Shown: piece by piece, positions 2,193-21,952 of the stretch | How the letters are laid out: each line of letters starts with the position of its first letter | Numbering within the stretch: position 1 is the first letter of the stretch | Assembly (NCBI GenBank): GCA_964589705.1 | Contig: CAZPUF010000006.1 | Span: forward strand, 1 to 24,000 | Source: an uncultured Saprospiraceae bacterium | GTDB taxonomy: Bacteria > Bacteroidota > Bacteroidia > Chitinophagales > Saprospiraceae | Length of the DNA stretch: 24,000 nucleotides | Reading direction: 5' to 3' | Notes under the pieces: generated by a model | Databases searched by the model: none | The model's input: only the letters and a program-made list of their open reading frames with translations | What the model was told of the DNA's origin: nothing | Program-made: the position numbers and the translations under genes

Positions 2193-2540
2193 GTGAAAGA
2201 ATTTGACCACATAAAGAAGACTTCGCAATCAGCACAGACTCCACCTCCATCTCGAATCTGGGATAATGTGACCAGAAGGTTGGATAATGATAACAATGAG
2301 CACCTAATATCAAAGAGACAGCAGTATAGATGGTTCAGCATGACTGCTGCGTGTATAGCTTTTATTGCCGTGGGTTCAATGATATATCTCGAATCTAATA
2401 CACTGTCTGAGCCACCAAAAGGACATATAGCTGGATGGGAGGAACTTCAATCTACAAATTCAGCCTTTTACGATTCAAAAAAACTACATGGCCTTTATCA
2501 AGCCTATAATTCAAGGCAAGGAACCAATAATCCTATTTGA
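2193..2540 (+). CDS. Putative anti-sigma factor (single-pass membrane protein)
   Basis: It starts 7 nt after the sigma gene stop, at a GTG. The N-terminal 'PPPSRIWDNVTRRLD' resembles the short PSxxxWxxIxxxL segment common in small Bacteroidota anti-sigma proteins. There is one hydrophobic helix, 'WFSMTAACIAFIAVGSMIYL'. The function is inferred from position and topology only. Confidence 0.5.
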   Translation: MKEFDHIKKTSQSAQTPPPSRIWDNVTRRLDNDNNEHLISKRQQYRWFSMTAACIAFIAVGSMIYLESNTLSEPPKGHIAGWEELQSTNSAFYDSKKLHGLYQAYNSRQGTNNPI

Positions 2541-3732
2541 ATGGGCTTCTAGGCTGCCAATCATTTTCCGGGACGAATTGAGCCAACAATCTAGGCAGTA
2601 ATTTATTTATAGGCTTATTATGATACTTGAGATGTACATACATCTCATGGGGTACCGCGCCTACACTACTTTTAATTTCTAAAGCAGTTCGACTTAGATT
2701 TAGATAGCTGGCGTTGTCTTCTATAGCTGTCTCTATAAGTTTGAGTAGGATATTAAAGTAGATCTGATACGTTGAATTCAATTGGACATCATAACCAAGA
2801 AAGTGAGCATCCCCTTGGGGACCATTACTTATATAGGTGTAAAAGGCTATTAACTTTTCATCTAAGAATACACCGACCAACTTCAGTTTATCACCCATCT
2901 GCTTCTTAAGCGCTCCAAAATAGCCCTCACCCAATAGAAATAAGCTAAAGACCGCTCTATCAGCTGTTTTCTTATAGAGCTTATACATATCATTATTATA
3001 TCTCTCAGCACCAGCTTCATCAAGTTCTCTAAAGGTAAGCGCATCGCCTTTCTTCTTTACTTTTTTGAATTTGACTCTGTATTTTGATTTGACGGCTTTG
3101 AGATAATCATCATAAGTTGTCCAATCTTCATGCAAATGAATGACCATATCGGGCTGCACAACAAACTGAGTATAATCTTGATGGTTAAATGTTAATTTCT
3201 GCAAAGGTCCTTCCTTATAGAAATCCTTGAGTAAGGTGCTATTGATCTTTACGCCTTGCTCTTTTTTCGCATAGACTATAACCTCTGATAGTATTGTGGA
3301 AGCCAACTCTGAAGTATGAGTGGTTATTGCAGCATCTAGCCTCATCCCGAACTCCCCTGTCAATAATACATTACCACAAACAAGGATATTATGTTTGATA
3401 AAACCAAAGGCGAACTTAGTCAGTGACACCTTAATTTTTTCCCAAAGAGCTTCACTATGTGCATGTACTCTGAAATCTTCCTTAAGCTTGATTTGTTTGC
3501 ATTGACAATATACTAGCCCAACGATCTGCTCTTGCAGATATACACAGACATAATAGTATCTATAACCTATTGGACCTTGGGATTCCAGGACACTTAAATA
3601 ATCTGATTGTACGTACACATTCTCACCACAATGCCTGTCCCACTGCTCAATAATATTGCTGATATTATCAGTAATAGTAATGCTCAAGCCCTTATAGCTT
3701 GGAACAGAAAGTGATGTTGAATACGGCGTCAT
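2533..3732 (-). CDS. FemAB-like / BioF2-like (Acetyltransf_6-type) GNAT-superfamily acyltransferase, function unknown
   Basis: 399-aa ORF. The C-terminal half 'YRVKFKKVKKKG...LVGVFLDEKLIAFYTYISNGPQGDAHFLGYDVQLNSTYQIYFNILLKLIETAIEDNASYLNLSRTALEIKSSVGA' follows the pattern I associate with FemAB/BioF2-like acetyltransferase domains. The family assignment is from memory and the substrate is unknown. Confidence 0.5.
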   Translation of the reverse strand: MTPYSTSLSVPSYKGLSITITDNISNIIEQWDRHCGENVYVQSDYLSVLESQGPIGYRYYYVCVYLQEQIVGLVYCQCKQIKLKEDFRVHAHSEALWEKIKVSLTKFAFGFIKHNILVCGNVLLTGEFGMRLDAAITTHTSELASTILSEVIVYAKKEQGVKINSTLLKDFYKEGPLQKLTFNHQDYTQFVVQPDMVIHLHEDWTTYDDYLKAVKSKYRVKFKKVKKKGDALTFRELDEAGAERYNNDMYKLYKKTADRAVFSLFLLGEGYFGALKKQMGDKLKLVGVFLDEKLIAFYTYISNGPQGDAHFLGYDVQLNSTYQIYFNILLKLIETAIEDNASYLNLSRTALEIKSSVGAVPHEMYVHLKYHNKPINKLLPRLLAQFVPENDWQPRSPFK

Positions 3733-7733: not shown

Positions 7734-8708
7734 ATGTATCATAAAAACGTGCTTTCAACGATTGGTAATACGCCACTCATCAAACTCAACAAGGTAGTGG
7801 AGGATATTCCAGGCACAATTTTAGCCAAGGTGGAGACTTTTAATCCAGGCCATAGCATTAAAGACAGAATGGCTTTGATGATGATAGAAGATGCTGAAAA
7901 AGATGGCAGACTCCAACCTGGTGGCACTATTATAGAATGCACTTCAGGTAATACAGGTATGGGCTTAGCGTTAGCCGCTTGTGTCAAAGGATATAAATGC
8001 ATCTTTACCACAACCGATAAGCAATCGCCAGAAAAATTTGACATACTTAGGGCTGTTGGCGCTGAAGTCATTGTCTGCCCTACAAATGTAACTGCAGATG
8101 ATCCGCAATCCTATTATTCTGTTGCCGAGAGGTTATCTAAAGAAACTCCCAACTCCTTCTGGTGCAATCAATATGATAATCTATCTAATAGAAAAGCACA
8201 CTATCTCTCAACGGGCCCAGAGATATGGAAACAAACGGAAGGTAAAATCACTCATCTGCTAGCTGGGGTTGGTACAGGTGGCACCATATCTGGAACGGGA
8301 AAATATTTAAAAGAACAAAATCCAAATATCAGAATTCTTGGAATAGACACCTATGGATCTGCATTGAAGAAATATCATGAAACGGGCGAATTAGATGAAG
8401 GTGAGATTTATCCATACATCACTGAAGGCATTGGGGAAGATATTATTCCTGCCAATATCGACTTTGAAACGATAGACAGAATGGAGAAGGTTACAGATAA
8501 GGATGGTGCATTGATGTGCAGAAGATTGGCAAGGGAAGAAGGCTTATTGCTGGGGTACTCAGCAGGGTCAGCTGTTGCTGGATTAGGGAAATTTGCTGAT
8601 GAATTAAATGACGATTCTTTGGTTGTTATTATCATACATGACCACGGCACACGTTATATAGGTAAGATGTACAATGATGAATGGATGAAAAAAAATGACT
8701 TCATCTAA
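7734..8708 (+). CDS. PLP-dependent cysteine synthase / cystathionine beta-synthase-family enzyme
   Basis: 'NPGHSIKDRMALMMIEDAEKDGRLQPGGTIIECTSGNTGMGLALAA' contains the PLP-lysine in 'SIKDR' and the 'TSGNTG' motif. A 'GVGTGGTISG' phosphate-binding loop is also present. I cannot separate CysK, CysM and CBS-core from sequence reading alone. Confidence 0.85.
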   Translation: MYHKNVLSTIGNTPLIKLNKVVEDIPGTILAKVETFNPGHSIKDRMALMMIEDAEKDGRLQPGGTIIECTSGNTGMGLALAACVKGYKCIFTTTDKQSPEKFDILRAVGAEVIVCPTNVTADDPQSYYSVAERLSKETPNSFWCNQYDNLSNRKAHYLSTGPEIWKQTEGKITHLLAGVGTGGTISGTGKYLKEQNPNIRILGIDTYGSALKKYHETGELDEGEIYPYITEGIGEDIIPANIDFETIDRMEKVTDKDGALMCRRLAREEGLLLGYSAGSAVAGLGKFADELNDDSLVVIIIHDHGTRYIGKMYNDEWMKKNDFI

Positions 8709-9638: not shown

Positions 9639-10787
9639 ATGAAAATTATCGTCACTACACAGGAAGGATTAGAAGAAGTCTGCGCCAGAGAAATGGCCAA
9701 CTTAGATTTGCAAGATATTGAAATCCTTAGGAGAGGTGTTTCTTGTCAAGGCAATTGGGCACAACTTTACAAATGCAATTATCTTTTACGAACGGCAGTA
9801 AGAGTCCTTGTTCCTATACACGAATTCGATGTAAATGATCAAGACGAATATTACGAGGCTATCAAAAGTATCAATTGGACTCAATACATTAAACCTGACC
9901 AAACTTTTGCCATCAATTCAGTTATCACAGGAGAACTCTTTACGAATAGTCTCTTTGCTACTTTCAGAGCAAAGGATGCCATAGCAGATAGGATAACAGA
10001 AGAAAAAGGATCTCGACCTGATGTAGACATAGACAACCCTTCCATCGTTATTAATATTTACGTCAATCAAGATAAGTTATCGGTAGCCTTGGATAGCACA
10101 GGTCATTCACTCCATCTGCGTGGTTACAAAGAACGATCATATAAGGCACCTCTTAATGAAGTATTCGCGGCAGGCATCATCAAATTAGCAGGTTGGGATG
10201 GCTCACAAGATTTTTACGACCCAATGTGTGGTTCAGGTACTTTTACCACAGAGGCATTGATGATGGCAGCTAATGTTCCACCTGGTAGACTGATAAAGAG
10301 ATTTTGTTTTCAAAACTGGACAGAATATTATCCAAAAATTTGGAGAAGTATTAAAAGAACTGCCGAAGAAGATATCATTGCACCAAAGTGTAATTTTTAC
10401 TCTAGTGATCTCAATCCATATGCTACACGTGATTTGAGAAAAAATTTGCAACGTATACCCTTCAAAGAGATCGTCAAAATCAAAGAGAAAGACTTTCTAG
10501 AAGAAACTGGTCAGCAGGATGCTATCCTATTTCTTAACCCACCATACGATAAAAGAATTAAGATTAGAGATGTCAAGAACTTCTACCGAAAAATCTCTGA
10601 TGCCCTTAAGCAACACTGGCAAGGGTCTACGGCCTGGGTAATATCTGGCAATAATCAGGCTATGAAGTCGTTTGGACTTAAACATAGCGCAAAATATAGT
10701 GTAGATAATGGCGGGATACCGTCCAAGTTGTATAAATTTGAATTATATGGTGGCTCACGGAAACAGAAACATAATAAAGCTCTATAG
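9639..10787 (+). CDS. THUMP domain-containing class I SAM-dependent RNA methyltransferase (COG0116, RlmL N-terminal half / YpsC-like)
   Basis: 382 aa. The N-terminal THUMP-like region includes 'LLRTAVRVLVPI' and 'FRAKDAIADRI'. The SAM-binding motif is 'FYDPMCGSGTFTTEA'. The catalytic (D/N)PPY motif is 'FLNPPYDKR'. Confidence 0.8.
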   Translation: MKIIVTTQEGLEEVCAREMANLDLQDIEILRRGVSCQGNWAQLYKCNYLLRTAVRVLVPIHEFDVNDQDEYYEAIKSINWTQYIKPDQTFAINSVITGELFTNSLFATFRAKDAIADRITEEKGSRPDVDIDNPSIVINIYVNQDKLSVALDSTGHSLHLRGYKERSYKAPLNEVFAAGIIKLAGWDGSQDFYDPMCGSGTFTTEALMMAANVPPGRLIKRFCFQNWTEYYPKIWRSIKRTAEEDIIAPKCNFYSSDLNPYATRDLRKNLQRIPFKEIVKIKEKDFLEETGQQDAILFLNPPYDKRIKIRDVKNFYRKISDALKQHWQGSTAWVISGNNQAMKSFGLKHSAKYSVDNGGIPSKLYKFELYGGSRKQKHNKAL

Positions 10788-11127
10788 CCTGACGATTATT
10801 CTAATCACGATATTCGTCACTCCTTCCTTTACCCAATCTCTGTCTATAGAATCTCTCAGGTTAGATAAAATTGATTCATTATGCATAGTACCAGATTTGA
10901 AGTTAGACTATGCACTATTATCCAAGCCAAAAGCTATACTGAATATAGAATCAACAAAAAATCAATCTGTCATGGTTAAGAAATTTGATTATCTCAAGGC
11001 TTACCATGACCACTTAGGCATCTTTTGCAAAGCCGAAAATATAGCCAGCCAAAAAGCGACAGTCAACTTGAGAATGAGGTTAGGAAGTCTGGAGTACGTA
11101 GACAGGATGGAAGGAAAGATAAGGTAA
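10747..11127 (+). CDS. Hypothetical secreted protein
   Basis: The track ORF starts at 10708, inside the methyltransferase gene. I prefer the ATG at 10747, which gives 'MVAHGNRNIIKLYSLTIILITIFVTPSFTQ', a signal-like sequence. The C-terminal 'LGIFCKAENIASQKATVNLRMRLGSLEYVDRMEGK' resembles a small conserved Bacteroidota family that I recall only vaguely. The function is unknown. Confidence 0.55.
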   Translation: MVAHGNRNIIKLYSLTIILITIFVTPSFTQSLSIESLRLDKIDSLCIVPDLKLDYALLSKPKAILNIESTKNQSVMVKKFDYLKAYHDHLGIFCKAENIASQKATVNLRMRLGSLEYVDRMEGKIR

Positions 11128-11132
11128 AGCAA

Positions 11133-11858
11133 TTACAGAATATCCTTAAGGTCTGATACACCTATATACTCATGACAAGTAAATCCTTCACCATATTCCA
11201 CAGCTATTCTTCTTCCAAAATCTTGGGATCTTCCTCTTAATCCATCCAAAAAAGACTTAGACGAAATCGGTGTTTGTGGTCCTTTAGAATCCTTCTGATA
11301 AAACTGAGTTTCAAAGCATTTGACAAGTTTTATCTTCTTATCCATATACATTGAAATATCTACCACGATGTCTGGCTTGATATAATGATCCTGTATATAG
11401 TGGAGGACTTTGCGAGGACGCCATGGCGCTTGATTTGTTTTTCCTGATTTGGTTTTGATCTTAAGCAGACCAGAAAGAAAACAAGCTTCACTGACTAATT
11501 TTGCTGCATTACCATGGTCAGGATGACGATCTGTGACCGAATTAGCCAAGATTATCTCAGGCCTATACTTACGGATGGACTTTATAATTTTCAATTTATT
11601 CTCTTTGTTATTGGCGATAAAGCCATCTGCCATTCCTAGATTTTCTCTTACAGCAACCTTTGCAAATTTTCTTGCAGCTTCAGCCTCTTTCTTCCTTGTA
11701 GCAGCTGTTCCTCTTGTTCCTAATTCTCCTTTGGTCAAATCAACAATTCCAACTTTATATCCTAAGTCAATATGTTTTAGTATCGTACCACCACATCCTA
11801 ACTCCACATCATCAGGATGTACGCCTATTGCGAGAAAATCTAAATTCTTAATCTTCAT
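11133..11858 (-). CDS. bshB1: LmbE/PIG-L-family N-acetylglucosaminide deacetylase, best match to bacillithiol biosynthesis deacetylase BshB1
   Basis: 'AIGVHPDDVELGCGGTILK' is the zinc-binding (A/P)HPDD motif. 'DLTKGELGTRG...RKKEAEAAR' and 'DRHPDHGNAAKLVSEACFLSG' align closely with my recollection of B. subtilis BshB1 (YpjG). The gene lies 25 nt downstream of fabH on the same strand. Confidence 0.8.
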   Translation of the reverse strand: MKIKNLDFLAIGVHPDDVELGCGGTILKHIDLGYKVGIVDLTKGELGTRGTAATRKKEAEAARKFAKVAVRENLGMADGFIANNKENKLKIIKSIRKYRPEIILANSVTDRHPDHGNAAKLVSEACFLSGLLKIKTKSGKTNQAPWRPRKVLHYIQDHYIKPDIVVDISMYMDKKIKLVKCFETQFYQKDSKGPQTPISSKSFLDGLRGRSQDFGRRIAVEYGEGFTCHEYIGVSDLKDIL

Positions 11859-11883
11859 ATATTATAATTAAAAGGCAAGCCAT

Positions 11884-12936
11884 TTACTCCCATCTGAGTA
11901 ATGCACTACCCCAAGTAAATCCACTTCCAAATGCAGCCAAACAAACCAAATCACCTGATTTTACCATACCAGCTTCCCATGCTTCACATAAGGCAATAGG
12001 AATAGAGGCTGCGGTTGTATTGCCATATTTCTGGATGTTATTGAATACCTTATCATCAGTAAGGCTCATACTCTGCTGAACGAATTTGCTGATTCTCAAA
12101 TTAGCTTGGTGCGGAACCAACATATCTATATCTGACTTGTCCAAGCCGGTCTCATTCAGCGCTTCTTGTATAACCTCTACAAACTTAACAACTGCTTTCT
12201 TGAATACCGCTTGACCATTCATATATGGATACATCATCCCATCAGCCACCATCTTTGGTGTAGCAAATATGCCTCCTGGCACATTTGTATCAGGAAAGCC
12301 ATAATCCACCTCATCATGGACACCTCCATGACTTCCAAAATTTATCATGGCCAACTCCTCAGCAAAGCTGCCATCGGAATGTAGCTTGGTCGTCAATATA
12401 CCTTCTCCCTCTGCAGGTTGTAAGACAACCGCACCAGCTCCATCTCCAAAAATCACAGTCACATTCCGACCTTTGGTGCTAAAATCCAATCCCATACTGT
12501 GCATCTCAGCTCCAACTAACAAGATGTTCTTATACATTCCAGATCGGATAAACTGATCCGCCACTGAGAGACCATAGACAAATCCTGAACATTGATTACG
12601 TATATCCAATGCGCCGATTTCAGTATTGGTAATTCCCAATTCTCGTTGTAATAATACGCCACAACCTGGGAAATAATAATCAGGACTAAGGGTCGCAAAG
12701 ATGATGAAGTCCACATCCTCTTTGGTAATACCTGCTCTTTCTATAGCTATCTCTGCCGCTTTGGCACCCATGGTAGATGATGATTCTTTATGCTTAGTCG
12801 CATATCTCCTTTCTTCTATGCCTGTTCTCTCAATGATCCACTCGTCAGAAGTATCCATATACTTAGTTAGCTCTTGATTCTTGACGACATTGGAAGGCAA
12901 ATAACACCCTATACCTCCAATTTTGGTTCTTGCCAT
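11884..12936 (-). CDS. fabH: Beta-ketoacyl-ACP synthase III (KAS III)
   Basis: The catalytic triad contexts are 'NQCSGFVYGL' (Cys), 'VPHQANLRI' (His) and 'GNTTAASIPIAL' (Asn). The C-terminal 'GFTWGSALLRW' is typical of the family. At 350 aa it is somewhat longer than canonical FabH. Confidence 0.88.
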   Translation of the reverse strand: MARTKIGGIGCYLPSNVVKNQELTKYMDTSDEWIIERTGIEERRYATKHKESSSTMGAKAAEIAIERAGITKEDVDFIIFATLSPDYYFPGCGVLLQRELGITNTEIGALDIRNQCSGFVYGLSVADQFIRSGMYKNILLVGAEMHSMGLDFSTKGRNVTVIFGDGAGAVVLQPAEGEGILTTKLHSDGSFAEELAMINFGSHGGVHDEVDYGFPDTNVPGGIFATPKMVADGMMYPYMNGQAVFKKAVVKFVEVIQEALNETGLDKSDIDMLVPHQANLRISKFVQQSMSLTDDKVFNNIQKYGNTTAASIPIALCEAWEAGMVKSGDLVCLAAFGSGFTWGSALLRWE

Positions 12937-13054
12937 AACATTCAGTTTTCAAGCAAATTAATAGATTTTTTATTGCTGTCATTATCCAAAAGTCTATTAT
13001 TCACTAATAAATAAACTTAGAAATGTAAAGTAACCAATAGCAATGGATAATTAC

Positions 13055-13062
13055 TAGCTTTG
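13055..13062 (+). promoter_or_regulatory. Candidate Bacteroidota -7 promoter box (TAnnTTTG) for the lipid operon
   Basis: 'tagctttg' is a perfect TAnnTTTG. It ends 34 nt upstream of the TTG start at 13097, within the 160-bp divergent fabH / lipid-operon intergenic region. Confidence 0.45.
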
Positions 13063-13096
13063 CGATTAGCGAGATCACCTCACAGAATAAGACAAT

Positions 13097-13792
13097 TTGA
13101 ATCCTATAAAGAAGAAGCTACAACAGCTTATTTACATAATCCTAAATCCACTAATTCAGCTTTTGATAAAGTTGGGTGTCACTCCAAATATGGTTACCTT
13201 CTTCGGTTTCCTACTTAATATCTTGTCGACGGGTGTGCTCATATATGGAGCAGAGGTAGGAGATAGAAATAATCACAAATATCTAGGATATGCAGGTGCG
13301 ATAATACTATTTGCCGGAGCCATGGATATGATAGATGGAAGATTAGCGAGATTGAGTGGTAAGGACCATCCATATGGTGCCTTATATGACTCCGTCATAG
13401 ATAGGTACAGTGAGCTGGTTATGTTTTTTGGCTTCTGCTATTATACAGTAACTCAAGATTACTTACTGACAAGCATATTTAGTTTTATTGCTATGATAGG
13501 ATCTATTATGGTCAGTTATACAAGAGCGCGGGCAGAAGGACTAGGTGTCAATGCCAGTGTCGGTCTAATGCAGCGGCCAGAAAGAATAGTCCTTGTCGCA
13601 ACAGCCAGTCTGATAACCTGTATAGTCTCGGCTGCGATCGGCGGTGGGTATGAATATAGAGTATCATGGTTAGGTCAACCAATCTTTGAGACGATCTCAG
13701 TATTCAGCTGGTCTATCACTTTCTTGGCGTTTTCTGCCAATATCACAGCTCTAAGAAGGTTATATTTCTCCAGACAACAACTCATGGAATAG
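13097..13792 (+). CDS. CDP-alcohol phosphatidyltransferase; candidate phosphatidylinositol-phosphate synthase
   Basis: A perfect family signature DX2DGX2ARX8GX3DX3D is present in 'DMIDGRLARLSGKDHPYGALYDSVIDR'. The protein has multiple TM helices. The start is a TTG, because no in-frame ATG precedes the conserved 'TPNMVTFFGF'. The inositol-phosphate acceptor is inferred from co-operonic MIPS and PgpA. Confidence 0.85.
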   Translation: MNPIKKKLQQLIYIILNPLIQLLIKLGVTPNMVTFFGFLLNILSTGVLIYGAEVGDRNNHKYLGYAGAIILFAGAMDMIDGRLARLSGKDHPYGALYDSVIDRYSELVMFFGFCYYTVTQDYLLTSIFSFIAMIGSIMVSYTRARAEGLGVNASVGLMQRPERIVLVATASLITCIVSAAIGGGYEYRVSWLGQPIFETISVFSWSITFLAFSANITALRRLYFSRQQLME

Positions 13793-13860
13793 TTTGTTAA
13801 TCTATTTAATGGTGAGAATAACGGTGATATAGCTGAGAAAGATTTTAAATTTGAACCTAG

Positions 13861-14382
13861 ATGTTAGATAACTTTAATAAGATTAAGACCAGGAAGACCC
13901 AATATGGAGAACATGGGCTACCTGAAACTTATCCGGTTCCACGGATAGATGGTCTTCTTTTCTACATCCAAAGAAATCTAAATCAGAACACAGTAGTCTA
14001 CGTTATAAATCAATCTAAAGATGGCTTTCTAAATGAAGAGCGACCAATGGATGTCTACTGGGTTAATTACACCGAAGGCGGCATTGTTAAATCACTTAAC
14101 CAAATTCAAAACAAACTTGCTTTTGGCTATAAAAGCGAAAAAATAAACAATACAAGCTGTCGATTCCAAATGGTTTCATATGAACATCAGGAATTTTACA
14201 TTGGAAAAAACTGTGATAACAAGTATCAAGTACATACTAAGTTAAATGACCGAATGAGTGTCATATCCAACATATACGTATACGCTGAAGATTTTGGCGT
14301 ATTTCCTCAGGTTAAGTATATAGAGTTCTATGGACAGGACTTAGTGAGACAATTACCAACGTACAGTAAAGTACTCTTGTAA
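13861..14382 (+). CDS. Soluble hypothetical protein, probably DUF4833 family
   Basis: 173 aa with no signal peptide or TM segment. 'LFYIQRNLNQNTVVYVIN', 'DVYWVNY' and 'VKYIEFYGQD' fit my recollection of the Bacteroidota-restricted DUF4833 pattern. This was not verified. Confidence 0.6.
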   Translation: MLDNFNKIKTRKTQYGEHGLPETYPVPRIDGLLFYIQRNLNQNTVVYVINQSKDGFLNEERPMDVYWVNYTEGGIVKSLNQIQNKLAFGYKSEKINNTSCRFQMVSYEHQEFYIGKNCDNKYQVHTKLNDRMSVISNIYVYAEDFGVFPQVKYIEFYGQDLVRQLPTYSKVLL

Positions 14383-14392
14383 AACTTTCTTC

Positions 14393-15325
14393 ATGTCTTT
14401 TCGATTTGATTCAAGGTTCTCCAGAAATTGGATAGTATTTGGATTGGTTTTTACCACCCTATACTGGCTATGGAATGGGCTGGCAGTAGGTATAGATTCA
14501 TTGGCGATCATCTTCTACTTATCCATTATTGGTCTGATCTATGCCACTCCAAGAAGTAGAAAATTGGCCGTCGCTTTTAGTCCATTTTTCATCTACCTGA
14601 TATGCTATAATTCACTGAAAATATTGCATGATTATAATCCATTTACCATTATAAATGAGTCTCTTTATGATCTCGAAGTTGCTTGGTTTGGGGTTAATGT
14701 TGACGGTGTCAAAGTCTCCTTATGCGAATACTTCAACCATCATATTCATTGGTTTCTTGATTTAGTCTCAGGTATCTTCTATATCACTTGGGCCCCATTT
14801 CCAATCATTTTTGGTCTCATTACATTTTTTACTAAAAAACCAAAACTGACCTTTGATTTTTGGACTTGCTTTTTAATTGCCAACTTATTTGGATTTGCTA
14901 TCTATATTTTGCTTCCAGCTGCACCTCCTTGGTATTATTTGAAATATGGAGCAGAAGTGGTACTTGATGCTGGCGGAGAACCAGCTGGTTTAGCCAGGTT
15001 TGATGAAATGATAGGATTTGGGTTATATTCTGGAATGTACAGTAAGGGGACAAATACCTTTGGTGCATTACCTTCAATGCATGCTGCCTTCCCATTAATT
15101 TTGAGTTATTATAGTTTGAAATACAAGAACAAATATTTAACTACTTTATTCACTGTCAGTTTGTTATGTATATGGTTTGGTGCTATATATACTAACCATC
15201 ATTATTTAATTGATGTAATTATGGGGATTGGATGTGCTATTATTGGTATTTTACTACTTGAAACCACGGTAAATAGTAGTTTTGTGCCTTCTTGGTACAA
15301 GAAAACAAAAGAATTCATTAGCTGA
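14393..15325 (+). CDS. PAP2-superfamily integral membrane protein with sphingomyelin/IPC-synthase-like motifs; candidate inositol-phosphoceramide synthase
   Basis: About 6-8 TM helices. The C2-like motif is 'LPSMHAAFP' (PSxH). The C3-like motif 'NHHYLIDVIMG' (HxxxD) resembles the SMS/AUR1-type 'HYxxDV' block. The classical KxxxxxxRP C1 motif is not obvious to me, as is also true of SMS/IPC synthases. Confidence 0.7.
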   Translation: MSFRFDSRFSRNWIVFGLVFTTLYWLWNGLAVGIDSLAIIFYLSIIGLIYATPRSRKLAVAFSPFFIYLICYNSLKILHDYNPFTIINESLYDLEVAWFGVNVDGVKVSLCEYFNHHIHWFLDLVSGIFYITWAPFPIIFGLITFFTKKPKLTFDFWTCFLIANLFGFAIYILLPAAPPWYYLKYGAEVVLDAGGEPAGLARFDEMIGFGLYSGMYSKGTNTFGALPSMHAAFPLILSYYSLKYKNKYLTTLFTVSLLCIWFGAIYTNHHYLIDVIMGIGCAIIGILLLETTVNSSFVPSWYKKTKEFIS

Positions 15326-15340
15326 CTTAGTTTATATTTT

Positions 15341-16546
15341 ATGCCCCTAAGAAAGAAAATGGTTGCTTATACGCAGCCTCAAAAAATTCAAGAGCTAGGA
15401 ATATATCCATACTTCCGTACAATTGAATCTGAACAAGATACGGTTGTCAAAATCAATGGGAAGGATGTCTTGATGTTCGGTTCTAATAGTTATTTAGGAT
15501 TGACTAATCATCCACGACTTAAGGAAGCTTCAAAGAAAGCCATAGACAAATATGGCTCAGGTTGTGCAGGTTCTAGATTCCTAAACGGGACCTTGGATAT
15601 CCATTTAGAATTAGAAGAAAAGCTGGCTTCCTTTGTAGGAAAAGAAGAGGCCCTAGTATTTAGTACAGGGTTTCAAGTTAATCTAGGTGTTATCTCATCT
15701 ATACCAGGTAGACACGATTACATTATCACTGATGACTTAGACCACGCATGCATAATAGACGGTGCCAGATTGAGTTATGCGAGCAAGCACTGGAAGTACA
15801 AGCATAATGACATGGAAGCTCTAGAAAAGCTTCTTGCCAAGTGTGAGCCTGAGCGCATTAAGCTAATTGCTGTTGATGGTGTATTTAGCATGGAAGGTGA
15901 TCTATGTAATTTGCCAGAGATAGTCAGACTTGCGAAAAAATATAAAGCGTGTATCTTTTTGGATGATGCACATGGTCTAGGCGTAATGGGGGCTGGAGGA
16001 AGAGGTACTGCAGCACACTTTGGATTGACAGAGGATGTAGATATGATTATGGGTACATTCAGTAAATCACTAGCGTCTATAGGTGGGTTTGTTGCAGCAA
16101 ACAAAGAGACGATTAATTACCTTAAGCATAATGCAAGATCTCTCATATTTAGTGCAAGTATAGCACCTGCTAATGCTGCATCTGTTATTGCAGCACTTGA
16201 TCTTATACAAGAAGAACCCGACAGGATAGACAAGGTTTGGGAGAATACTAATTACGCTATGAAGCTTCTTAATGAAGCTGGTTTTGACACAGGTCATACA
16301 GTTACACCAATCATTCCAATTTTGATTAGAGATGATTATAAGACCTTTAGCTTAACCAGAAAATTATTAGACCAAGGTGTCTTTGTCAATCCAGTTGTAT
16401 CTCCGGCAGTACCAAGTACGTCTTCGTTACTGAGATATTCGTTGATGTCTACTCACACCAAACCCCAGATAGAAGAATCCGTAGAAAAGATTTACGCTAT
16501 CTCTAAGGAAATCGGTGTCTTTGACCAAGAAAAAACGCATGCATGA
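15341..16546 (+). CDS. spt: Alpha-oxoamine synthase, serine palmitoyltransferase-like
   Basis: 'GSNSYLGLTNHPRLKEASKKAIDKYGSGCAGSRFLNGTLDIHLELEEKLA', 'DDAHGLGVMG', and the PLP-lysine context 'GTFSKSLASIGGFVA'. The GTFSKS context matches what I recall for bacterial SPT, whereas BioF and KBL have GTLSKA/GTLGKA. The operon context also supports SPT. Confidence 0.8.
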   Translation: MPLRKKMVAYTQPQKIQELGIYPYFRTIESEQDTVVKINGKDVLMFGSNSYLGLTNHPRLKEASKKAIDKYGSGCAGSRFLNGTLDIHLELEEKLASFVGKEEALVFSTGFQVNLGVISSIPGRHDYIITDDLDHACIIDGARLSYASKHWKYKHNDMEALEKLLAKCEPERIKLIAVDGVFSMEGDLCNLPEIVRLAKKYKACIFLDDAHGLGVMGAGGRGTAAHFGLTEDVDMIMGTFSKSLASIGGFVAANKETINYLKHNARSLIFSASIAPANAASVIAALDLIQEEPDRIDKVWENTNYAMKLLNEAGFDTGHTVTPIIPILIRDDYKTFSLTRKLLDQGVFVNPVVSPAVPSTSSLLRYSLMSTHTKPQIEESVEKIYAISKEIGVFDQEKTHA

Positions 16547-17670
16547 GTCTCGAAATAAGAGAGACACAAAACAAAAAAGAACTTCATCAATTTATTGATT
16601 TCCCCCATGACCTTTATGAAGGGGACTCCTACTATGTGCCAGAGATCTTTATGGCACAAAAAGACTTACTTAATAAGAACAAACATCCTTTTCATAAGCA
16701 AGGAGAGGTCACCTGTTTTCTAGCCTTCGATAACGAGATAATTGTTGGCCGCATAGCCGCTATCAAAAACCCTGGTTATAACGCCTATCATCATTCCAAT
16801 ATTGGTTTTTTTGGTTTCTATGATTATATAGAATCAGCGCAAGTTGCCAAAGCATTATTGGACAGAGTGAAATCTCATTTAGCCAGTGAAAAATATGACA
16901 CTTTAATGGGTCCTGTCAATTTTTCCACGAATGAAACAGCCGCTACCCTAGTAGATGGATTTGATAGTTCTCCACTAATAATGATGACATATAACAAGTC
17001 CTATTATGACAGAATACAAAAAGAGATAGGACTAGAGAAAGAAATGGATTTGTATGCATACTATATGCCTACTGCATCGGTCTCTCAAAAGTCAGTAAAG
17101 ATGTATGACTTGATCCTAGAGCGACTTAAAAGAAAAGGTATCACTTTGAGAAACATTTCCATCAAAAACATCAAGGCAGAGGCTGATGGCATGCATAAGG
17201 TCTACAACAAAGCTTGGGAAAAAAATTGGGGATTTGTACCCATGTCTCGTACAGAAATGGACTTCATGATATCGGAACTCAAAATGATAGCAGATGAACG
17301 GTTCTGTTATATAGCCGAGCACAACGGTGAAGCGATTGGATTTTCCATTTCATTACCAGACATTAATGAGATTTCTAAGGGATTTAAAAAAGGCAGACTA
17401 TTCCCTTTTAATGTTTTTAAATTACTGCTCAAGAAGAAATCTGTATCCAAGGTAAGAATCATAACCATGGGAGTCATTGCTGAATATAGACGATTGGGGA
17501 TAGAAGCACTCTTCTTTGCCAGAAATATAATGACAGCTCAAGAGATTGGATTACACGGAGGAGAAGCCTCTTGGATATTAGAATCCAATGCAGAAATGAT
17601 CGCCTCAGCTGAAAAATTAAATGCCAAGAGATACAAAACGTATCGAATCTATAAGTACGACTTAAGTTAA
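16543..17670 (+). CDS. Two-domain GNAT-family acyltransferase; candidate bacterial ceramide synthase (N-acyltransferase)
   Basis: The start overlaps the spt stop within 'ATGA'. The GNAT core is 'CYIAEHNGEAIGFSISLP...RIITMGVIAEYRRLGIEALFFARNI'. The ceramide synthase role is inferred from its position between spt and the SDR gene. Confidence 0.6.
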   Translation: MSLEIRETQNKKELHQFIDFPHDLYEGDSYYVPEIFMAQKDLLNKNKHPFHKQGEVTCFLAFDNEIIVGRIAAIKNPGYNAYHHSNIGFFGFYDYIESAQVAKALLDRVKSHLASEKYDTLMGPVNFSTNETAATLVDGFDSSPLIMMTYNKSYYDRIQKEIGLEKEMDLYAYYMPTASVSQKSVKMYDLILERLKRKGITLRNISIKNIKAEADGMHKVYNKAWEKNWGFVPMSRTEMDFMISELKMIADERFCYIAEHNGEAIGFSISLPDINEISKGFKKGRLFPFNVFKLLLKKKSVSKVRIITMGVIAEYRRLGIEALFFARNIMTAQEIGLHGGEASWILESNAEMIASAEKLNAKRYKTYRIYKYDLS

Positions 17671-17674
17671 AACT

Positions 17675-18667
17675 ATGGCATCCAAAATATTAATTACTGG
17701 TGCCAACGGATTCCTAGGAAGCTGGCTGGTAGATGAAGCCATAGCCCAAAACCTCCATGTATATGCTGGGGTAAGAAAAACTTCTAACCTTCAATATCTC
17801 AAAGATCCACGAATACATTTTTTTTACTATGACTTCAGCAAAGAGGATCAGCTTAGAGAAAAACTAAGAACTGAGGCTTTTGACTACATCGTCTTGAATG
17901 CTGGATTAACTACAGCAAAGGATCGAGCTACTTATTTTAAAGTCAATGCCAGCTATGTCAGAAAAATCTGCAAAATACTGCTAGAAGAGAAAGTGATTCC
18001 CAAAAAACTGATTTTGATCAGCAGTCTCGCTTCTTATGGACCAGCCAATTATCAAGTTAAGCAAATCTTAGATAGTGACAGTACTCCTCATCCAGTGACA
18101 TGGTATGGGGAGTCTAAGTTGCAAGCAGAACAATTTATACAAGGTTTCCAGATGATACCTTATTTGATATTTAGACCTACAGCGGTTTTTGGTCCCAGAG
18201 ATACGGCAATGGTGGATGTTTTTAAAGCGGCCAAATTAGGTTTATCACCAAAAATAGGAAAAGGAGAAATGGATGCCAGTTTTATCTATGTCAAAGACAT
18301 GGCTAAACTTGTTATAGATGCTGCTACTTCTGAGGCCGAAAGAAAATCATATTTTGTCAGCGATGGAAAGGTCTACCCTATCCATGATTTCAATCAGATG
18401 GTTGGAGATATCCTTGGAAAAAAATTAACAAGGATTACAATTCCATTTTCTATCATGAAGCTAGCTGGCTTTGTAAGTGAAAATATAGGTAAGCTACGAG
18501 GTACTGTTCCTATTCTTAATCGCAATAAAGTCAAAGAATATTTTGCGAGGTCCTTTGCTGTAGATACCGATGACTTAAAAAAAGATTTTAACTTCGCACC
18601 TTCTTATACCTTAAGTGATGGATTAAAGGAGACTATCACCTGGTGTCAGCAGAATAAATTACTATAA
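17675..18667 (+). CDS. NAD(P)-dependent epimerase/dehydratase-family SDR; candidate 3-keto-sphingoid/ceramide reductase
   Basis: Rossmann motif 'ILITGANGFLGSWL' (GxxGxxG). Catalytic YxxxK in 'WYGESKLQAE'. It starts 4 nt after the GNAT stop. Confidence 0.75.
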   Translation: MASKILITGANGFLGSWLVDEAIAQNLHVYAGVRKTSNLQYLKDPRIHFFYYDFSKEDQLREKLRTEAFDYIVLNAGLTTAKDRATYFKVNASYVRKICKILLEEKVIPKKLILISSLASYGPANYQVKQILDSDSTPHPVTWYGESKLQAEQFIQGFQMIPYLIFRPTAVFGPRDTAMVDVFKAAKLGLSPKIGKGEMDASFIYVKDMAKLVIDAATSEAERKSYFVSDGKVYPIHDFNQMVGDILGKKLTRITIPFSIMKLAGFVSENIGKLRGTVPILNRNKVKEYFARSFAVDTDDLKKDFNFAPSYTLSDGLKETITWCQQNKLL

Positions 18668-18679
18668 ACAGTTAACGAA

Positions 18680-20053
18680 ATGGCAGCTAAAAGAACATCA
18701 ACTAAAAAACAGACGACCAAATCCGCAAAACGTGGAAAGAAGACCATGAAAGGATTGGCCACCAAACCAGTTGGCAAACTCGGCATATTGACGCCAGGAA
18801 TGGGTGCGGTAGCAACAACTTTTATAGCTGGTGTGATGGCAATCAATAAAGGCTTAGCAAATCCAGTAGGCTCATTGACTCAGATGGGGCGAATAAGAAT
18901 CGGAAAGAGAACAAAGAAGAAGATACCGATGATTAGTGATGTAGTCCCATTACAAGATTTGGGTAAGGTTGCATTTGGAGGATGGGATATCTTCAAAGAC
19001 AATATGTACGAAGCTGCAGTCCATGCAGATGTACTTGACAAAGCACTTCTAGATAAGCTAAAAACTCCTCTATCCAAGATTAAACCTATGAAGGCTGTCT
19101 TTGATAAGAGTTATGTAAAGAAGCTTAATGGGACCCATGTCAAGAAAGCCAAAACCAAAATGGATCTTGCAAAGGCAGTTATGGCTGATATTAGAAGATT
19201 CAAGAAGGCCAATAATTGTAATCGTCTTGTAATGGTCTGGTGTGGTTCTACCGAAATATATATAGAAGAATCTTCTGTGCATAAAACCATAGAAGCTTTC
19301 GAAAAAGGGCTAATGAAGAACAGCAAGCATATCGCACCTAGTATGATATATGCTTATGCGGCAATAAAGATGGGTATACCTTATGCAAATGGCGCACCTA
19401 ATCTTTCATGTGATGTGCCTGCCTTAGTAGACTTAGCTAAGAAGACTGGAACCCCAATTGCTGGAAAGGATTTCAAAACAGGACAAACCCTAATGAAGAC
19501 TATCTTGGCTCCAGGATTTAAAGCAAGAGCCCTAGGAATCGAAGGTTGGTTCTCTACAAACATATTAGGCAACAGGGATGGAGAAGTCTTAGATGATCCA
19601 GATAATTTTAAAACTAAAGAAGTATCTAAACTGGGTGTATTAGAGCAGATTCTCGAACCAAAATTATACCCTGAACTTTACAAAGATTTTTATCATAAGG
19701 TAAGAATCAATTACTATCCACCTAGAGGTGACAACAAAGAAGGATGGGATAATATAGATATCAAAGGATGGCTGGACTATCCTATGCAGATTAAAGTAGA
19801 TTTCCTTTGTCGTGATTCCATTCTTGCGGCGCCAATTGTCCTTGACTTAGCTATATTTTTAGATTTGGCTAAAAGATCAGGCATGTCAGGCATACAAGAG
19901 TGGTTATCCTTCTATCTCAAATCCCCTCAGGCACCTGCAGGAAGATTCCCAATTCATGACATCTTTAAGCAATTAGCAAAATTGGAAAATACACTTCGAT
20001 ATATCGGTGGTCATGATTTACTTGATTACCTAGGACAAGATTATGAAGCTTAA
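18680..20053 (+). CDS. myo-Inositol-1-phosphate (inositol-3-phosphate) synthase
   Basis: 457 aa. 'GILTPGMGAVATTFIAG' is the NAD-binding N-terminus. 'VMVWCGSTE', 'YANGAPN' and 'GKDFKTGQTLMKTILAPGFKARALGIEGWFSTNILGNRDG' are typical of MIPS. The true start may instead be the ATG at 18746 (see findings). Confidence 0.88.
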   Translation: MAAKRTSTKKQTTKSAKRGKKTMKGLATKPVGKLGILTPGMGAVATTFIAGVMAINKGLANPVGSLTQMGRIRIGKRTKKKIPMISDVVPLQDLGKVAFGGWDIFKDNMYEAAVHADVLDKALLDKLKTPLSKIKPMKAVFDKSYVKKLNGTHVKKAKTKMDLAKAVMADIRRFKKANNCNRLVMVWCGSTEIYIEESSVHKTIEAFEKGLMKNSKHIAPSMIYAYAAIKMGIPYANGAPNLSCDVPALVDLAKKTGTPIAGKDFKTGQTLMKTILAPGFKARALGIEGWFSTNILGNRDGEVLDDPDNFKTKEVSKLGVLEQILEPKLYPELYKDFYHKVRINYYPPRGDNKEGWDNIDIKGWLDYPMQIKVDFLCRDSILAAPIVLDLAIFLDLAKRSGMSGIQEWLSFYLKSPQAPAGRFPIHDIFKQLAKLENTLRYIGGHDLLDYLGQDYEA

Positions 20054-20056
20054 TAG

Positions 20057-20524
20057 ATGATTAAGTTTCACAAAGCCATAGCGACAGTTATAGGCTTAGG
20101 ATATGCGCCTATTGCACCTGGAACCTTCGGTACAATAGGCGCTGTCATTTTCCTTTACTTAGTCTATTTTTTTGGCATATCACTCTCCTCAGCTGTCCTG
20201 ATTGGCATCATAATAATCTCAGCTTTGGTTGGAATATGGAGTACAGATCAAGTTATTCCTGAATGGGGAGATGACCCTTCTAAAGTGGTAATAGATGAGT
20301 TTGTTGGTTATCTCGTCACAATGTTATTTGTTCCGATTCAACCCAAATATATACTAGTAGCATTTATACTATTTCGCTTTTTTGACATTCTTAAGCCACT
20401 TGGTATTAGATACCTTGATAAGAACATAAAGGGTGGAACAGGAGTTATGCTAGATGATGTGCTTGCAGGTATATATGCTTGTGGATGCTTGCATCTAATA
20501 ATTAGATTTGTACCATCATTCTAA
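20057..20524 (+). CDS. PgpA-family phosphatidylglycerophosphatase A; candidate phosphatidylinositol-phosphate phosphatase
   Basis: 'GLGYAPIAPGTFGT', 'VVIDEFVGY', 'FRFFDILKPLGI' and 'GGTGVMLDDVLAGIYA' are hallmark PgpA blocks. It starts 3 nt after the MIPS stop. Confidence 0.85.
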   Translation: MIKFHKAIATVIGLGYAPIAPGTFGTIGAVIFLYLVYFFGISLSSAVLIGIIIISALVGIWSTDQVIPEWGDDPSKVVIDEFVGYLVTMLFVPIQPKYILVAFILFRFFDILKPLGIRYLDKNIKGGTGVMLDDVLAGIYACGCLHLIIRFVPSF

Positions 20525-20533
20525 TCGACTGTC

Positions 20534-20932
20534 ATGACTACCTCACCTAAGGTCCCATTCTGGCAGTCCCTTATCAAATCTCAGTTGGGTTCATTTCTAG
20601 CCACTGTCTTTGATTTCAGTAGTCTTTATATCTTGACCGAGTTTGTTGGAATATACTATGTAGCCTCAGCTGGCATTGCTAGTGGCATAGGGGCGGTGGT
20701 TGGATTTCTGGTGCAGAGATATTGGGCATTCAAACGAACTGAAAAAAATTGGAAATGGCAAGCTGTGAAATATGGATTAGTCAGTCTACTTATTCTGCTG
20801 CTCAATGTGATAGGAATATATCTCTTTACTGAGATGTTGGAATTTCAATATATGATATCCAAAATTATAATTGCTTTCCTTATTGGTATCTTCGTTTCCT
20901 TTCCGCTATTCAGGTACTTCGTATATAATTAG
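20534..20932 (+). CDS. GtrA-family small membrane protein (polyprenyl-/lipid-linked sugar translocation family)
   Basis: 132 aa with four predicted TM helices. 'VGFLVQRYWAFK' matches the GtrA-type RxWxF motif after TM2. Confidence 0.75.
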   Translation: MTTSPKVPFWQSLIKSQLGSFLATVFDFSSLYILTEFVGIYYVASAGIASGIGAVVGFLVQRYWAFKRTEKNWKWQAVKYGLVSLLILLLNVIGIYLFTEMLEFQYMISKIIIAFLIGIFVSFPLFRYFVYN

Positions 20933-20938
20933 TAGAAG

Positions 20939-21952
20939 ATGGAATCTGGAAATCTAATAGGAGGAGACAAAATTAGCATTGTCATGCCAGTTAGGAATGG
21001 ATTACCATATCTAGAAGATTGCTTACAATCAATTTTATCTCAAACTTGGACTGACTGGGAATTAATCATAGTCAATGACCATAGTACAGACAACACCCTT
21101 ACTCTACTACAGGAGATATCATTAAGAGACCAACGTATCCAATGGTACAATAATGAAGAAATTGGAATTACTCCAGCGCTTATCAAGGCAAGCACTTATT
21201 GCACAGGAAATATGATTTCCAGGATGGACGCCGATGATATAATGCCTATAGATAAGTTGGAAAACCTACATCAGCTATTAAAAAATGAAGAACAGGGTAC
21301 CGTAGTAACAGGGATGGTCAAGTACTTTTCTTCAGAAAATTTGGGAGAGGGGTATCGAAAATATGAGGCATGGCTTAATAACTTATCTTCTAAGCAAATA
21401 CATTACAGCGAGATCTATAAGGAATGCTGCGTCGCTTCAGCCAACTGGTTGATGTACATGGATGACTTCGAAAGGTGTGGTGGATTCAATGTCAAAATGT
21501 ATCCTGAAGATTATAGTTTGGTTTTTGAGTGGCGGCGAATGGGCTACAAAATTTTAGCGACCAAACATATAACACATTTATGGAGGGACCACTTAATGAG
21601 AGCTTCGCGAAATGATGACAATTACAAGAACAATACATTCGCACCACTCAAAGTCAGTTACTTTCTAGACCAAGATTGGAATAAGAATAAACAATTGATC
21701 CTATGGGGCGCAGGACCTAAAGGCAAACTAATTGCCAAACAACTAGTCAAAAGAAACATCCTCTTCAGGTGGATATGTAATAACCCTAATAAAATTGGGC
21801 AAAACATTTATAACGTAGAGTTGGAAACAGTTGATATTCTAAAAGCAATACCAAGTAGTCAAGTCATTGTTGCTGTCAGTCAAAGAAAAACAAAAGAAAC
21901 TATTTTAAACACCTTGGAAAATCATAACCATCAAAGCTTCTTCTTTTGCTAA
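20939..21952 (+). CDS. Family 2 (GT-A) glycosyltransferase with a C-terminal Rossmann-like extension
   Basis: 'ISIVMPVRNGLPYLEDCLQSILSQTWTDWELIIVNDHSTDNT' is the GT2 N-terminus. 'RMDADD' is the DxD motif. Residues ~250-337 carry 'LILWGAGPKGKLIAKQL' (GxGxxG), which is not part of a standard GT2 fold. Confidence 0.8.
   Translation: MESGNLIGGDKISIVMPVRNGLPYLEDCLQSILSQTWTDWELIIVNDHSTDNTLTLLQEISLRDQRIQWYNNEEIGITPALIKASTYCTGNMISRMDADDIMPIDKLENLHQLLKNEEQGTVVTGMVKYFSSENLGEGYRKYEAWLNNLSSKQIHYSEIYKECCVASANWLMYMDDFERCGGFNVKMYPEDYSLVFEWRRMGYKILATKHITHLWRDHLMRASRNDDNYKNNTFAPLKVSYFLDQDWNKNKQLILWGAGPKGKLIAKQLVKRNILFRWICNNPNKIGQNIYNVELETVDILKAIPSSQVIVAVSQRKTKETILNTLENHNHQSFFFC

Follow-up and report, generated by a model that had tools for sequence, protein, structure and literature searches.

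The window studied here, a stretch of 24,000 nucleotides from an uncultured Saprospiraceae bacterium, carries on its plus strand three adjacent genes (15341-18667) that very probably encode a bacterial serine palmitoyltransferase (Spt), a ceramide synthase and a ceramide reductase. They stand at the centre of a ten-gene block, and we consider it likely that the Spt, a tandem-GNAT N-acyltransferase and an extended short-chain dehydrogenase/reductase (SDR) form the dihydroceramide-forming core of a ten-gene inositol-phosphoceramide (IPC) operon; the identities of the genes come from homology, residues, folds and neighbourhoods, and their substrates are inferred. The original prediction had proposed a compact Spt-GNAT-SDR ceramide module, with coordinates that omit the flanking genes, and its three family assignments are all upheld by homology, motifs and neighbourhood.

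In the proposed pathway, Spt would form 3-ketosphinganine from serine and a long-chain acyl thioester, the tandem-GNAT would N-acylate the sphingoid base and the extended SDR would reduce the 3-keto group with NAD(P)H, giving dihydroceramide. In parallel, MIPS (a myo-inositol-1-phosphate synthase) would make inositol phosphate, a phosphatidylinositol-phosphate (PIP) synthase and a PgpA-type phosphatase would lead to phosphatidylinositol, and a PAP2/AUR1-like enzyme would move phosphoinositol from phosphatidylinositol to dihydroceramide, giving inositol-phosphoceramide. This product is predicted because the ceramide core is accompanied by homologues of all five inositol-lipid genes of Bacteroides thetaiotaomicron.

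The three genes of the probable ceramide core

The open reading frames of spt (15341-16546, plus strand, 401 aa), of the GNAT gene (16543-17670, plus strand, 375 aa) and of the SDR gene (17675-18667, plus strand, 330 aa) are joined exactly as had been described: an ATGA at 16543-16546 holds both the stop of spt and the start of the GNAT gene (an overlap of 4 nt), and the TAA of the latter ends at 17670, 4 nt before the ATG of the SDR gene at 17675. Among relatives, same-strand junctions between spt and the GNAT gene overlap in 9 of 60 cases (8 of them by 4 nt) and leave a gap of 0-20 nt in 14 of the 60, and those between the GNAT and SDR genes overlap in 14 of 23. The tight junctions are real, yet typical of this gene set.

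The first protein passes the NCBIfam model for the serine palmitoyltransferase of Bacteroidota (NF047600; 666 bits, cut-off 640) and matches the crystallised Spt of Sphingobacterium multivorum (3A2B) with 503 bits, against 240-255 bits for two cysteate-condensing enzymes of the PDB. It has the TFSKS motif with the lysine that binds pyridoxal phosphate (PLP), and its FSAS motif places an alanine at the position equivalent to Lys281 of SulA. According to Radka et al., a lysine at this position in SulA and an alanine in Spt tell the two enzymes apart (PMC9304779), and the Spt-type alanine was found in every Spt partner checked. Judged by these sequence features, the Spt of the window is a genuine serine palmitoyltransferase of the Bacteroidota type.

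The second protein is a tandem-GNAT N-acyltransferase of the YghO/CC_1154 family and a predicted bacterial ceramide synthase (bCerS), an assignment drawn from homology, phylogeny, residues, fold and synteny. The earlier description of a two-domain protein of about 375 aa with a generic annotation is accurate: the AlphaFold2 model (pLDDT 87) has two alpha/beta domains (residues ~3-176 and 200-373), and the names found in databases are 'GNAT family N-acetyltransferase' or 'hypothetical protein'. Pfam recognises only the C-terminal half, and that weakly, as Acetyltransf_1, and a sequence search of the PDB retrieves only marginal matches to single-domain acetyltransferases. Foldseek aligns the model with tandem-GNAT enzymes (5kf1, 7q3a, 2wpw and 1ozp, at E-values of 2e-14 or weaker), the classes represented being glucosamine N-acetyltransferase, MAB_4324, MshD and FemX-type proteins; as bCerS has no reference structure, the modelled fold supports the enzyme class only and does not tell the substrate.

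The function is better approached through the homologues of this protein and their genomic contexts. A tblastn search of plasmid records recovered full-length homologues in Spt contexts from three phyla, and the homologues from Escherichia coli (YghO), Sphingomonas (the 'aca' gene), Rubrobacter and Roseomonas are 30-32% identical over 99% of the length. YghO itself (32% identity, 99% coverage, 186 bits) is encoded next to genes for a fatty acyl-AMP ligase, an epimerase/dehydratase, an acyl carrier protein (ACP) and a class I/II aminotransferase. The gene at the 'aca' position in Sphingomonas parapaucimobilis (30% identity over the full length, 162 bits, E-value 7e-51) closes a locus made up of an NAD(P)H-binding protein, an ACP, an Spt, four further genes and this N-acetyltransferase. 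The Spt of that locus matches the crystallised enzyme of S. paucimobilis (2JG2) with 907 bits, and the locus tags of S. paucimobilis put aca five genes past spt, with which the observed locus agrees. In Fig. 9 of Padilla-Gomez et al., the 'aca' orthologues comprise CC_1154, yghO (ECD_02850), Swit_3908 and DRN02_007910 (PMC9386255), and CC_1154 and CC_1164 are the CerS and CerR of Caulobacter (PMC11087976, PMC11324152). On the strength of the Sphingomonas and E. coli matches combined with these orthologue sets, the window GNAT is, as far as its sequence tells, a full-length homologue of recognised CerS orthologues. The match to YghO had also been read as speaking against a role in sphingolipid synthesis, a reading that is reversed by the neighbourhood of yghO and by the published orthologues (PMC9386255).

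The phylogeny points in the same direction. Of the 115 family members placed in a tree, four paralogues linked to cysteate-C-fatty acyltransferase (CFAT) are set apart by a split supported at 100% from the other 111 sequences, 83 of which are Spt-adjacent, and the larger group takes in the proteobacterial CerS orthologues. The window protein lies within a Bacteroidota clade of 18 sequences, 15 of them Spt-adjacent, and the GNATs of the sampled genomes of the same phylum are placed with Ignavibacteria and Balneolia. The window GNAT has every residue that shows at least 93% conservation in the Spt-linked group (43/43), and nine of these positions differ in the CFAT-linked paralogues, including E213, W225, N228-W229-G230, N275, R305, E341 and W344. 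The comparison with known ceramide synthases that the original prediction had called for, made by way of their published orthologues, returns full-length homology to these orthologues and a tandem-GNAT fold, and its proposal of a ceramide synthase is supported by the YghO/'aca' homology, the membership of the Spt-linked superclade and the full set of conserved residues.

The third protein belongs to the extended SDRs and, within them, to the CerR/'epi' family; its homology to partner SDRs and its motifs predict it to be the 3-keto reductase giving dihydroceramide. Its Pfam families, PF01370 (Epimerase), GDP_Man_Dehyd and RmlD, set it apart from the short-chain (classical) architecture of BT_0972, TSC10 and FVT1. 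It aligns end to end with the partner SDR of Aureispira (140 bits) and over the full length with the corresponding SDRs of the Spt and GNAT loci of Sphingomonas, Rubrobacter and E. coli (~105 bits each), and it is 24-25% identical to epi of E. coli and to the NAD(P)H-binding protein that adjoins acpR-spt in Sphingomonas; the best solved epimerase reaches 42 bits by sequence. On the complete 4.8-Mb chromosome of E. coli H240, where GalE-type enzymes went undetected as matches, the top match is epi (69+23 bits), located 2 kb from yghO, followed by Gnu (62 bits) and YbjS (27 bits). The 'epi' orthologues listed by Padilla-Gomez et al. are CC_1164, ECD_02852 and DRN02_007875 (PMC9386255). The motifs TGxxGFxG (residues 8-15), Ser116/117 and Tyr144-x3-Lys148 show little or no variation among 30 partner SDRs. 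The model (pLDDT 95) adopts the general extended-SDR fold. Since this fold is non-discriminating, the CerR assignment rests on the sequence ranking and on the gene neighbourhood, and the reductase first described as of epimerase/dehydratase type can be specified as a homologue of the CerR/'epi' genes of GNAT-bearing loci.

The neighbourhood of the GNAT family was surveyed in a set of 80 loci at species level, which span more than 12 phyla (Bacteroidota, Ignavibacteria, Balneolia, Acidobacteriota, Gemmatimonadota, Myxococcota, Calditrichota, Zixibacteria, Planctomycetota and others) and of which many that lack a partner are short contigs. Of the 80 loci, 63 have an Spt homologue no more than 10 kb from the GNAT gene and 53 have an SDR homologue there; MIPS is present in 4 of them and PIG-L in 2. 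The order aminotransferase-GNAT-oxidoreductase is the same in the actinobacterium Rubrobacter, and five genomes (L037-L041) keep the order spt-GNAT-SDR-MIPS. Five other genomes, of the same class as the window (G063, G107, G231, G299 and G127), have an Spt 59-67% identical to that of the window and a distant GNAT homologue (27-31%), which stands 21 nt downstream of Spt in G063 (C1:2238382-2240687) and is unlinked to it in the remaining four, as reported for gut Bacteroidota. The pairing of Spt and GNAT is widespread, not universal.

Order of the steps and competing functions

By analogy with Caulobacter and Bacteroides fragilis, acylation probably comes ahead of reduction. Deletion of cerR in Caulobacter makes oxidised ceramide build up, and CerR is periplasmic there (PMC11087976); in B. 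fragilis, deletion of cerS leads to 3-ketosphinganine and deletion of cerR to keto-dihydroceramide (bioRxiv 10.1101/2023.05.23.541633). The same enzymes could also work in a eukaryote-like order, in which the SDR acts first, turning 3-ketosphinganine into sphinganine, and the latter is the substrate that the GNAT acylates. The order of the steps is not fixed by sequence, and the eukaryote-like one was the first proposal of Olea-Ozuna and colleagues for CC_1164/CC_1154 (PMC11324152); B. thetaiotaomicron moreover has a true 3-ketosphinganine reductase in BT_0972 (PMC9278070). In addition, no signal peptide is visible in the window SDR, whose Rossmann strand begins at residue 4, so that an early cytoplasmic reductase is conceivable, and its proteobacterial homologues likewise open directly with the cofactor motif. 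Nevertheless, the window SDR is extended and of CerR type and BT_0972 is a classical SDR, and the deletion phenotypes of both species speak against an early reduction, which seems unlikely, if less so than any of the other functions considered below.

The acyl donor is a related question. No gene for an ACP or for an acyl-AMP ligase/acyl-ACP synthetase is present in the operon or in the window, as the original prediction had correctly noted for the operon; across the whole assembly (85% complete) there is a single PP-binding match and a single AMP-binding match, each on a contig other than that of the window. The use of acyl-CoA substrates, which had been deduced from this absence, fits the view that the Spts of Bacteroidota use acyl-CoA (PMC11324152) but is disputed, Radka et al. 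having argued for housekeeping acyl-ACP as the donor instead (PMC9304779).

With acylation before reduction retained as the probable course, several points still weigh against the assignment of the three genes to ceramide synthesis and of the operon to inositol-phosphoceramide. The identities to the proteobacterial orthologues are low (30-32% between the window GNAT and CerS orthologues, 23-29% between the SDR and CerR orthologues), no NCBIfam model matches the GNAT, and the link to the assayed proteins CCNA_01212, CCNA_01222, BF9343_4218 and BF9343_4240 runs via published orthologues. A paralogous branch of the GNAT family is tied to sulfonolipid genes, and family membership alone leaves the substrate unfixed. 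Two head-group proteins score under the cut-offs of the models for their B. thetaiotaomicron counterparts (the PIP synthase homologue with 291 bits against 350 for NF052561, PIPSynBT1523; the PAP2 homologue with 255 bits against 480 for NF052609, PhinosDhcerSyn), and the genome is an 85%-complete metagenome-assembled genome (MAG). Finally, Foldseek pairs the modelled SDR with epimerases and dehydratases of sugar nucleotides (TM-scores of 0.75-0.81, in a PDB that holds no CerR structure), and the runner-up of the SDR in E. coli is Gnu, the 4-epimerase of lipid-linked GlcNAc (62 bits versus 69+23 for epi), over which the margin of epi is moderate.

These last two points would be expected if the substrate of the SDR were a nucleotide- or lipid-linked sugar and the protein, as an epimerase or dehydratase, supplied the family 2 glycosyltransferase (GT2) encoded downstream, the very case that the original prediction had set against itself. 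The Pfam families of the SDR, the nearly exclusive presence of sugar-nucleotide enzymes among its 50 top Foldseek matches, the substrate of Gnu (GlcNAc-PP-undecaprenol) and the GT2 and GtrA genes downstream are all in keeping with such a role. Yet the Foldseek sugar enzymes are only 15-23% identical to the SDR and, by sequence, the PDB offers nothing better than the 42 bits mentioned above, to be compared with the 105-140 bits reached by the SDRs that partner Spt and GNAT, and the lack of GalE-type matches in E. coli speaks against the idea as well. Moreover, the SDR gene is kept after the GNAT gene in clusters from which a GT2 homologue is absent (L037-L041 and L071-L075); the conservation of the SDR without GT2 argues against its serving GT2, as does its presence beside Spt-GNAT in 53 of the 80 loci, across many phyla without inositol or GT2 genes. 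A sugar epimerase is thus very improbable, and the SDR is best regarded as the predicted ceramide reductase.

The role of the GNAT can be questioned in a similar way: together with MIPS, GT2 and a PIG-L/LmbE-family gene located nearby (11133-11858), it might acylate not the sphingoid base but an amino-sugar-inositol head group, along the lines of MshD or of glycosylphosphatidylinositol (GPI) synthesis. Mycothiol synthase MshD and glucosamine N-acetyltransferases are indeed among its Foldseek matches. Nevertheless, the conserved partner of the family is Spt (63/80 loci, versus 4/80 for MIPS and 2/80 for PIG-L), the GNAT is, by sequence as well as position, an orthologue of the CerS genes of proteobacteria, from whose loci inositol genes are absent, and neither PIG-L nor GT2 is conserved in the other fused clusters, which makes an acylation of the head group highly improbable. 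Hardly conceivable is the remaining idea that the GNAT N-acylates capnine or 3-ketocapnine and that the 'Spt' uses cysteate: sulfonolipids are common in Bacteroidota and the paralogous branch adjoins CFAT genes in two genomes, but the reading was rejected on the Spt scores (twice those for cysteate enzymes), the Spt-type alanine in place of SulA Lys281, the position of the GNAT on the Spt-linked side of the fully supported split and the nine conserved positions that differ from the CFAT-linked clade, and the operon carries an IPC-synthase homologue.

The ten-gene block and its predicted head-group genes

The ceramide core is embedded in a block of ten plus-strand genes (13097-21952, 8.9 kb) in which every intergenic gap is of 68 nt or less and whose co-transcription is inferred. 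A possible Bacteroidota-type -7 promoter element, TAGCTTTG, was recognised by its match to the motif TAnnTTTG at 13055-13062 (plus strand); this motif occurs once in 12937-13100, ~35 nt ahead of the first gene, in a divergent intergenic region of 160 nt. Scans for sigma-70 promoters and for terminators found nothing above chance, including inside 13097-21952.

Homologues of all five genes from BT_1522 to BT_1526 are found in the operon, with a DUF4833 gene and GT2 as extras. The first gene (13097-13792, plus strand) encodes a CDP-alcohol phosphatidyltransferase (PF01066), homologous to the BT_1523-like PIP synthase. It is followed by the DUF4833 gene (13861-14382, plus strand; PF16117, 115 bits), which always has the PIP synthase gene as its neighbour in the fused clusters related to this one (L038, L039, L070, L071, L074 and L075), and by a PAP2-family homologue (14393-15325, plus strand; PF14378) of the phosphoinositol-dihydroceramide (IPC) synthase, BT_1522/AUR1-like. 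The latter is rare, with 7 of the 301 genomes sampled from the phylum having such a homologue and none of the sampled genomes reaching the cut-off of the BT_1522 equivalog model. By their scores, the PAP2 and PIP synthase proteins are homologues and not curated equivalogs. Downstream of the core stand a BT_1526-like MIPS (18680-20053, plus strand; PF07994, 337 bits, and PF01658, 114 bits), which is 66-76% identical across related fused clusters, and a PgpA-family phosphatase (20057-20524, plus strand; PF04608, 145 bits), homologous to BT_1525, whose role as PIP phosphatase has been described (PMC9246714). Next come a BT_1524-like GtrA-family membrane protein (20534-20932, plus strand; PF04138, 63 bits), the B. 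thetaiotaomicron counterpart of which has the GtrA motif and a knockout without lipid phenotype (PMC9246714), and GT2 as the last gene of the operon (20939-21952, plus strand; PF00535, 99 bits), which may glycosylate the head group.

Ceramide and inositol genes are likewise fused, in a rearranged order, in L037-L041 and in named MAGs (L068, L070, L071, L073, L074 and L075) from Saprospiraceae, Cyclobacteriaceae and unclassified Bacteroidota, although L070 has the gene order of the window. In L039 (5510-8077 and 9362-9997), a fatty-acid hydroxylase (PF04116) is inserted between DUF4833 and PAP2, and an 855-aa DUF5686 protein with a carboxypeptidase-regulatory-like domain occupies the position that GT2 has in the window; the accessory genes of the module thus vary between lineages.

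Divergently from the operon, on the minus strand, 11133-12936 holds a FabH-like ketoacyl synthase (KAS III) and the PIG-L/LmbE-family deacetylase mentioned above. This pair is kept beside the cluster only in the closest named relative, the Saprospiraceae MAG L068 (71% and 62% identity), and the linkage may be one of simple shared ancestry. It is tempting to imagine that GtrA-GT2, DUF4833 and PIG-L together build a glycosylated head group, for instance with glucosamine (GlcN), on inositol-phosphoceramide. If this were true, the product would be a counterpart, in a free-living bacterium, of the glycosyl inositol phosphoceramides (GIPC) of plants and fungi or of GPI-like glycolipids, with the ceramide core in one transcription unit, but such a scenario is doubtful and we regard it as quite unlikely. 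Further upstream, the window contains an enzyme of the PALP family (cysteine or cysteate synthase type; 7734-8708, plus strand) and a FemAB-like protein (2533-3732, minus strand).

Comparison with known systems and related loci

Among the closest known systems is that of Caulobacter crescentus, whose Spt (CC_1162), CerS (CC_1154 = CCNA_01212) and CerR (CC_1164 = CCNA_01222) belong to the same three families as the window proteins, as judged via the E. coli and Sphingomonas orthologues. As in Caulobacter, genes for a PLP-dependent Spt, a YghO-type tandem-GNAT and an extended-SDR reductase are clustered in the window, but the dedicated ACP (AcpR) and acyl-ACP synthetase (AasR) are missing from it. 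The genes of the window are contiguous and nearly overlap, whereas cerS of Caulobacter is eight genes away from spt. The window Spt also belongs, unlike that of Caulobacter, to the Bacteroidota/delta-proteobacterial subgroup, and the proteobacterial CerS and CerR orthologues are 23-32% identical to the window proteins. The cluster of E. coli B/BL21 (yghO ECD_02850, aasR ECD_02851, epi ECD_02852, acpR ECD_02853 and spt ECD_02854) resembles the window in that YghO is 32% identical to the GNAT and epi is the best chromosomal match of the SDR. It differs from the window in encoding AasR and AcpR and in lacking head-group genes.

Within the Bacteroidota, the cluster BT_1522-BT_1526 of B. thetaiotaomicron (Heaver et al. 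2022) encodes the phosphoinositol-dihydroceramide (PI-DHC) synthase, the PIP synthase, the protein with the GtrA motif, the PgpA-type PIP phosphatase and the MIPS that all have homologues in the window. The spt of that species (BT_0870) lies outside the cluster, whereas in the window everything is fused into one operon. The ceramide genes of Bacteroidota have been reported, for gut species, as not clustered (PMC11334938). The genes for CerS (BF9343_4218) and CerR (BF9343_4240) of B. fragilis, two enzymes from the Bacteroidota that were identified through their homology to those of Caulobacter, are 22 locus tags apart, and those of the window are contiguous. BT_0972 uses NAD(P)H to reduce the 3-keto group in a sphingoid intermediate, as is predicted for the window SDR, but it is a classical, TSC10/FVT1-like SDR (PMC9278070) and the window protein an extended SDR of 330 aa from the epimerase/dehydratase family.

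Spt, bCerS, CerR and their frequent co-localisation, including in MAGs of many phyla, are already published, as is the synthesis of inositol-phosphoceramide in Bacteroidota (PMC9246714), and the pathway being known, the conceptual gain is modest. What the window adds is a contiguous, nearly overlapping ceramide core in a phylum where gut species keep the genes apart, its fusion with head-group genes in one operon, and functional names for genes that databases call 'GNAT family N-acetyltransferase' and 'NAD-dependent epimerase/dehydratase'. The ceramide genes are often contiguous in environmental Bacteroidota, and they are fused with inositol genes in several lineages (Saprospiraceae, Cyclobacteriaceae and others). 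A single operon of 8.9 kb with a predicted capacity for de novo inositol-phosphoceramide synthesis would also be handy for heterologous reconstruction and for testing the disputed order of acylation and reduction.

The Spt-GNAT-SDR module can evidently be mobile, since complete triads were found on plasmid 1 of Rubrobacter radiotolerans (L059:3698-7065), where an LTA-synthase-family gene follows, and on plasmid pAUEa of the Saprospiraceae Aureispira anguillae (L058:3320-7149). Two records filed under E. coli plasmids in the database PLSDB, NZ_OL790696.1 (4.8 Mb) and NZ_MG591698.1 (354 kb), contain chromosomal genes (glcC-glcG, lptG, ybjS and the wca region) and look like chromosomes or chromosome pieces. 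Two Myxococcota loci have two GNAT copies beside Spt (at 9824 and 11869 in L128, and at 4899 and 6259 in L145), and the tree assigns these copies to two distinct subclades.

The paralogous GNAT clade, 25-30% identical to the window protein, deserves a separate mention. In two genomes of the class of the window, its members stand beside a gene for the cysteate-C-fatty acyltransferase (L148, 9413-10546 on the plus strand with 10611-11870 on the minus strand; L151, 9290-10408 on the plus strand with 10485-11783 on the minus strand), and L147 and L149 are the other loci of the clade. No named N-acyltransferase of sulfonolipid synthesis was found in the literature consulted, and the clade is a candidate for this step in sulfonolipid (capnine) synthesis, a lead and not yet a finding. 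The acyltransferase of L148 matches PDB entry 28eh with 730 bits, a PALP enzyme adjoins that of L151, and an outer-membrane protein of the Phenol_MetA_deg family is encoded upstream in three of the paralogue loci. The paralogue and the cysteate-C-fatty acyltransferase co-occur, mostly unlinked, in 8 of the 10 genomes with an orthologue.

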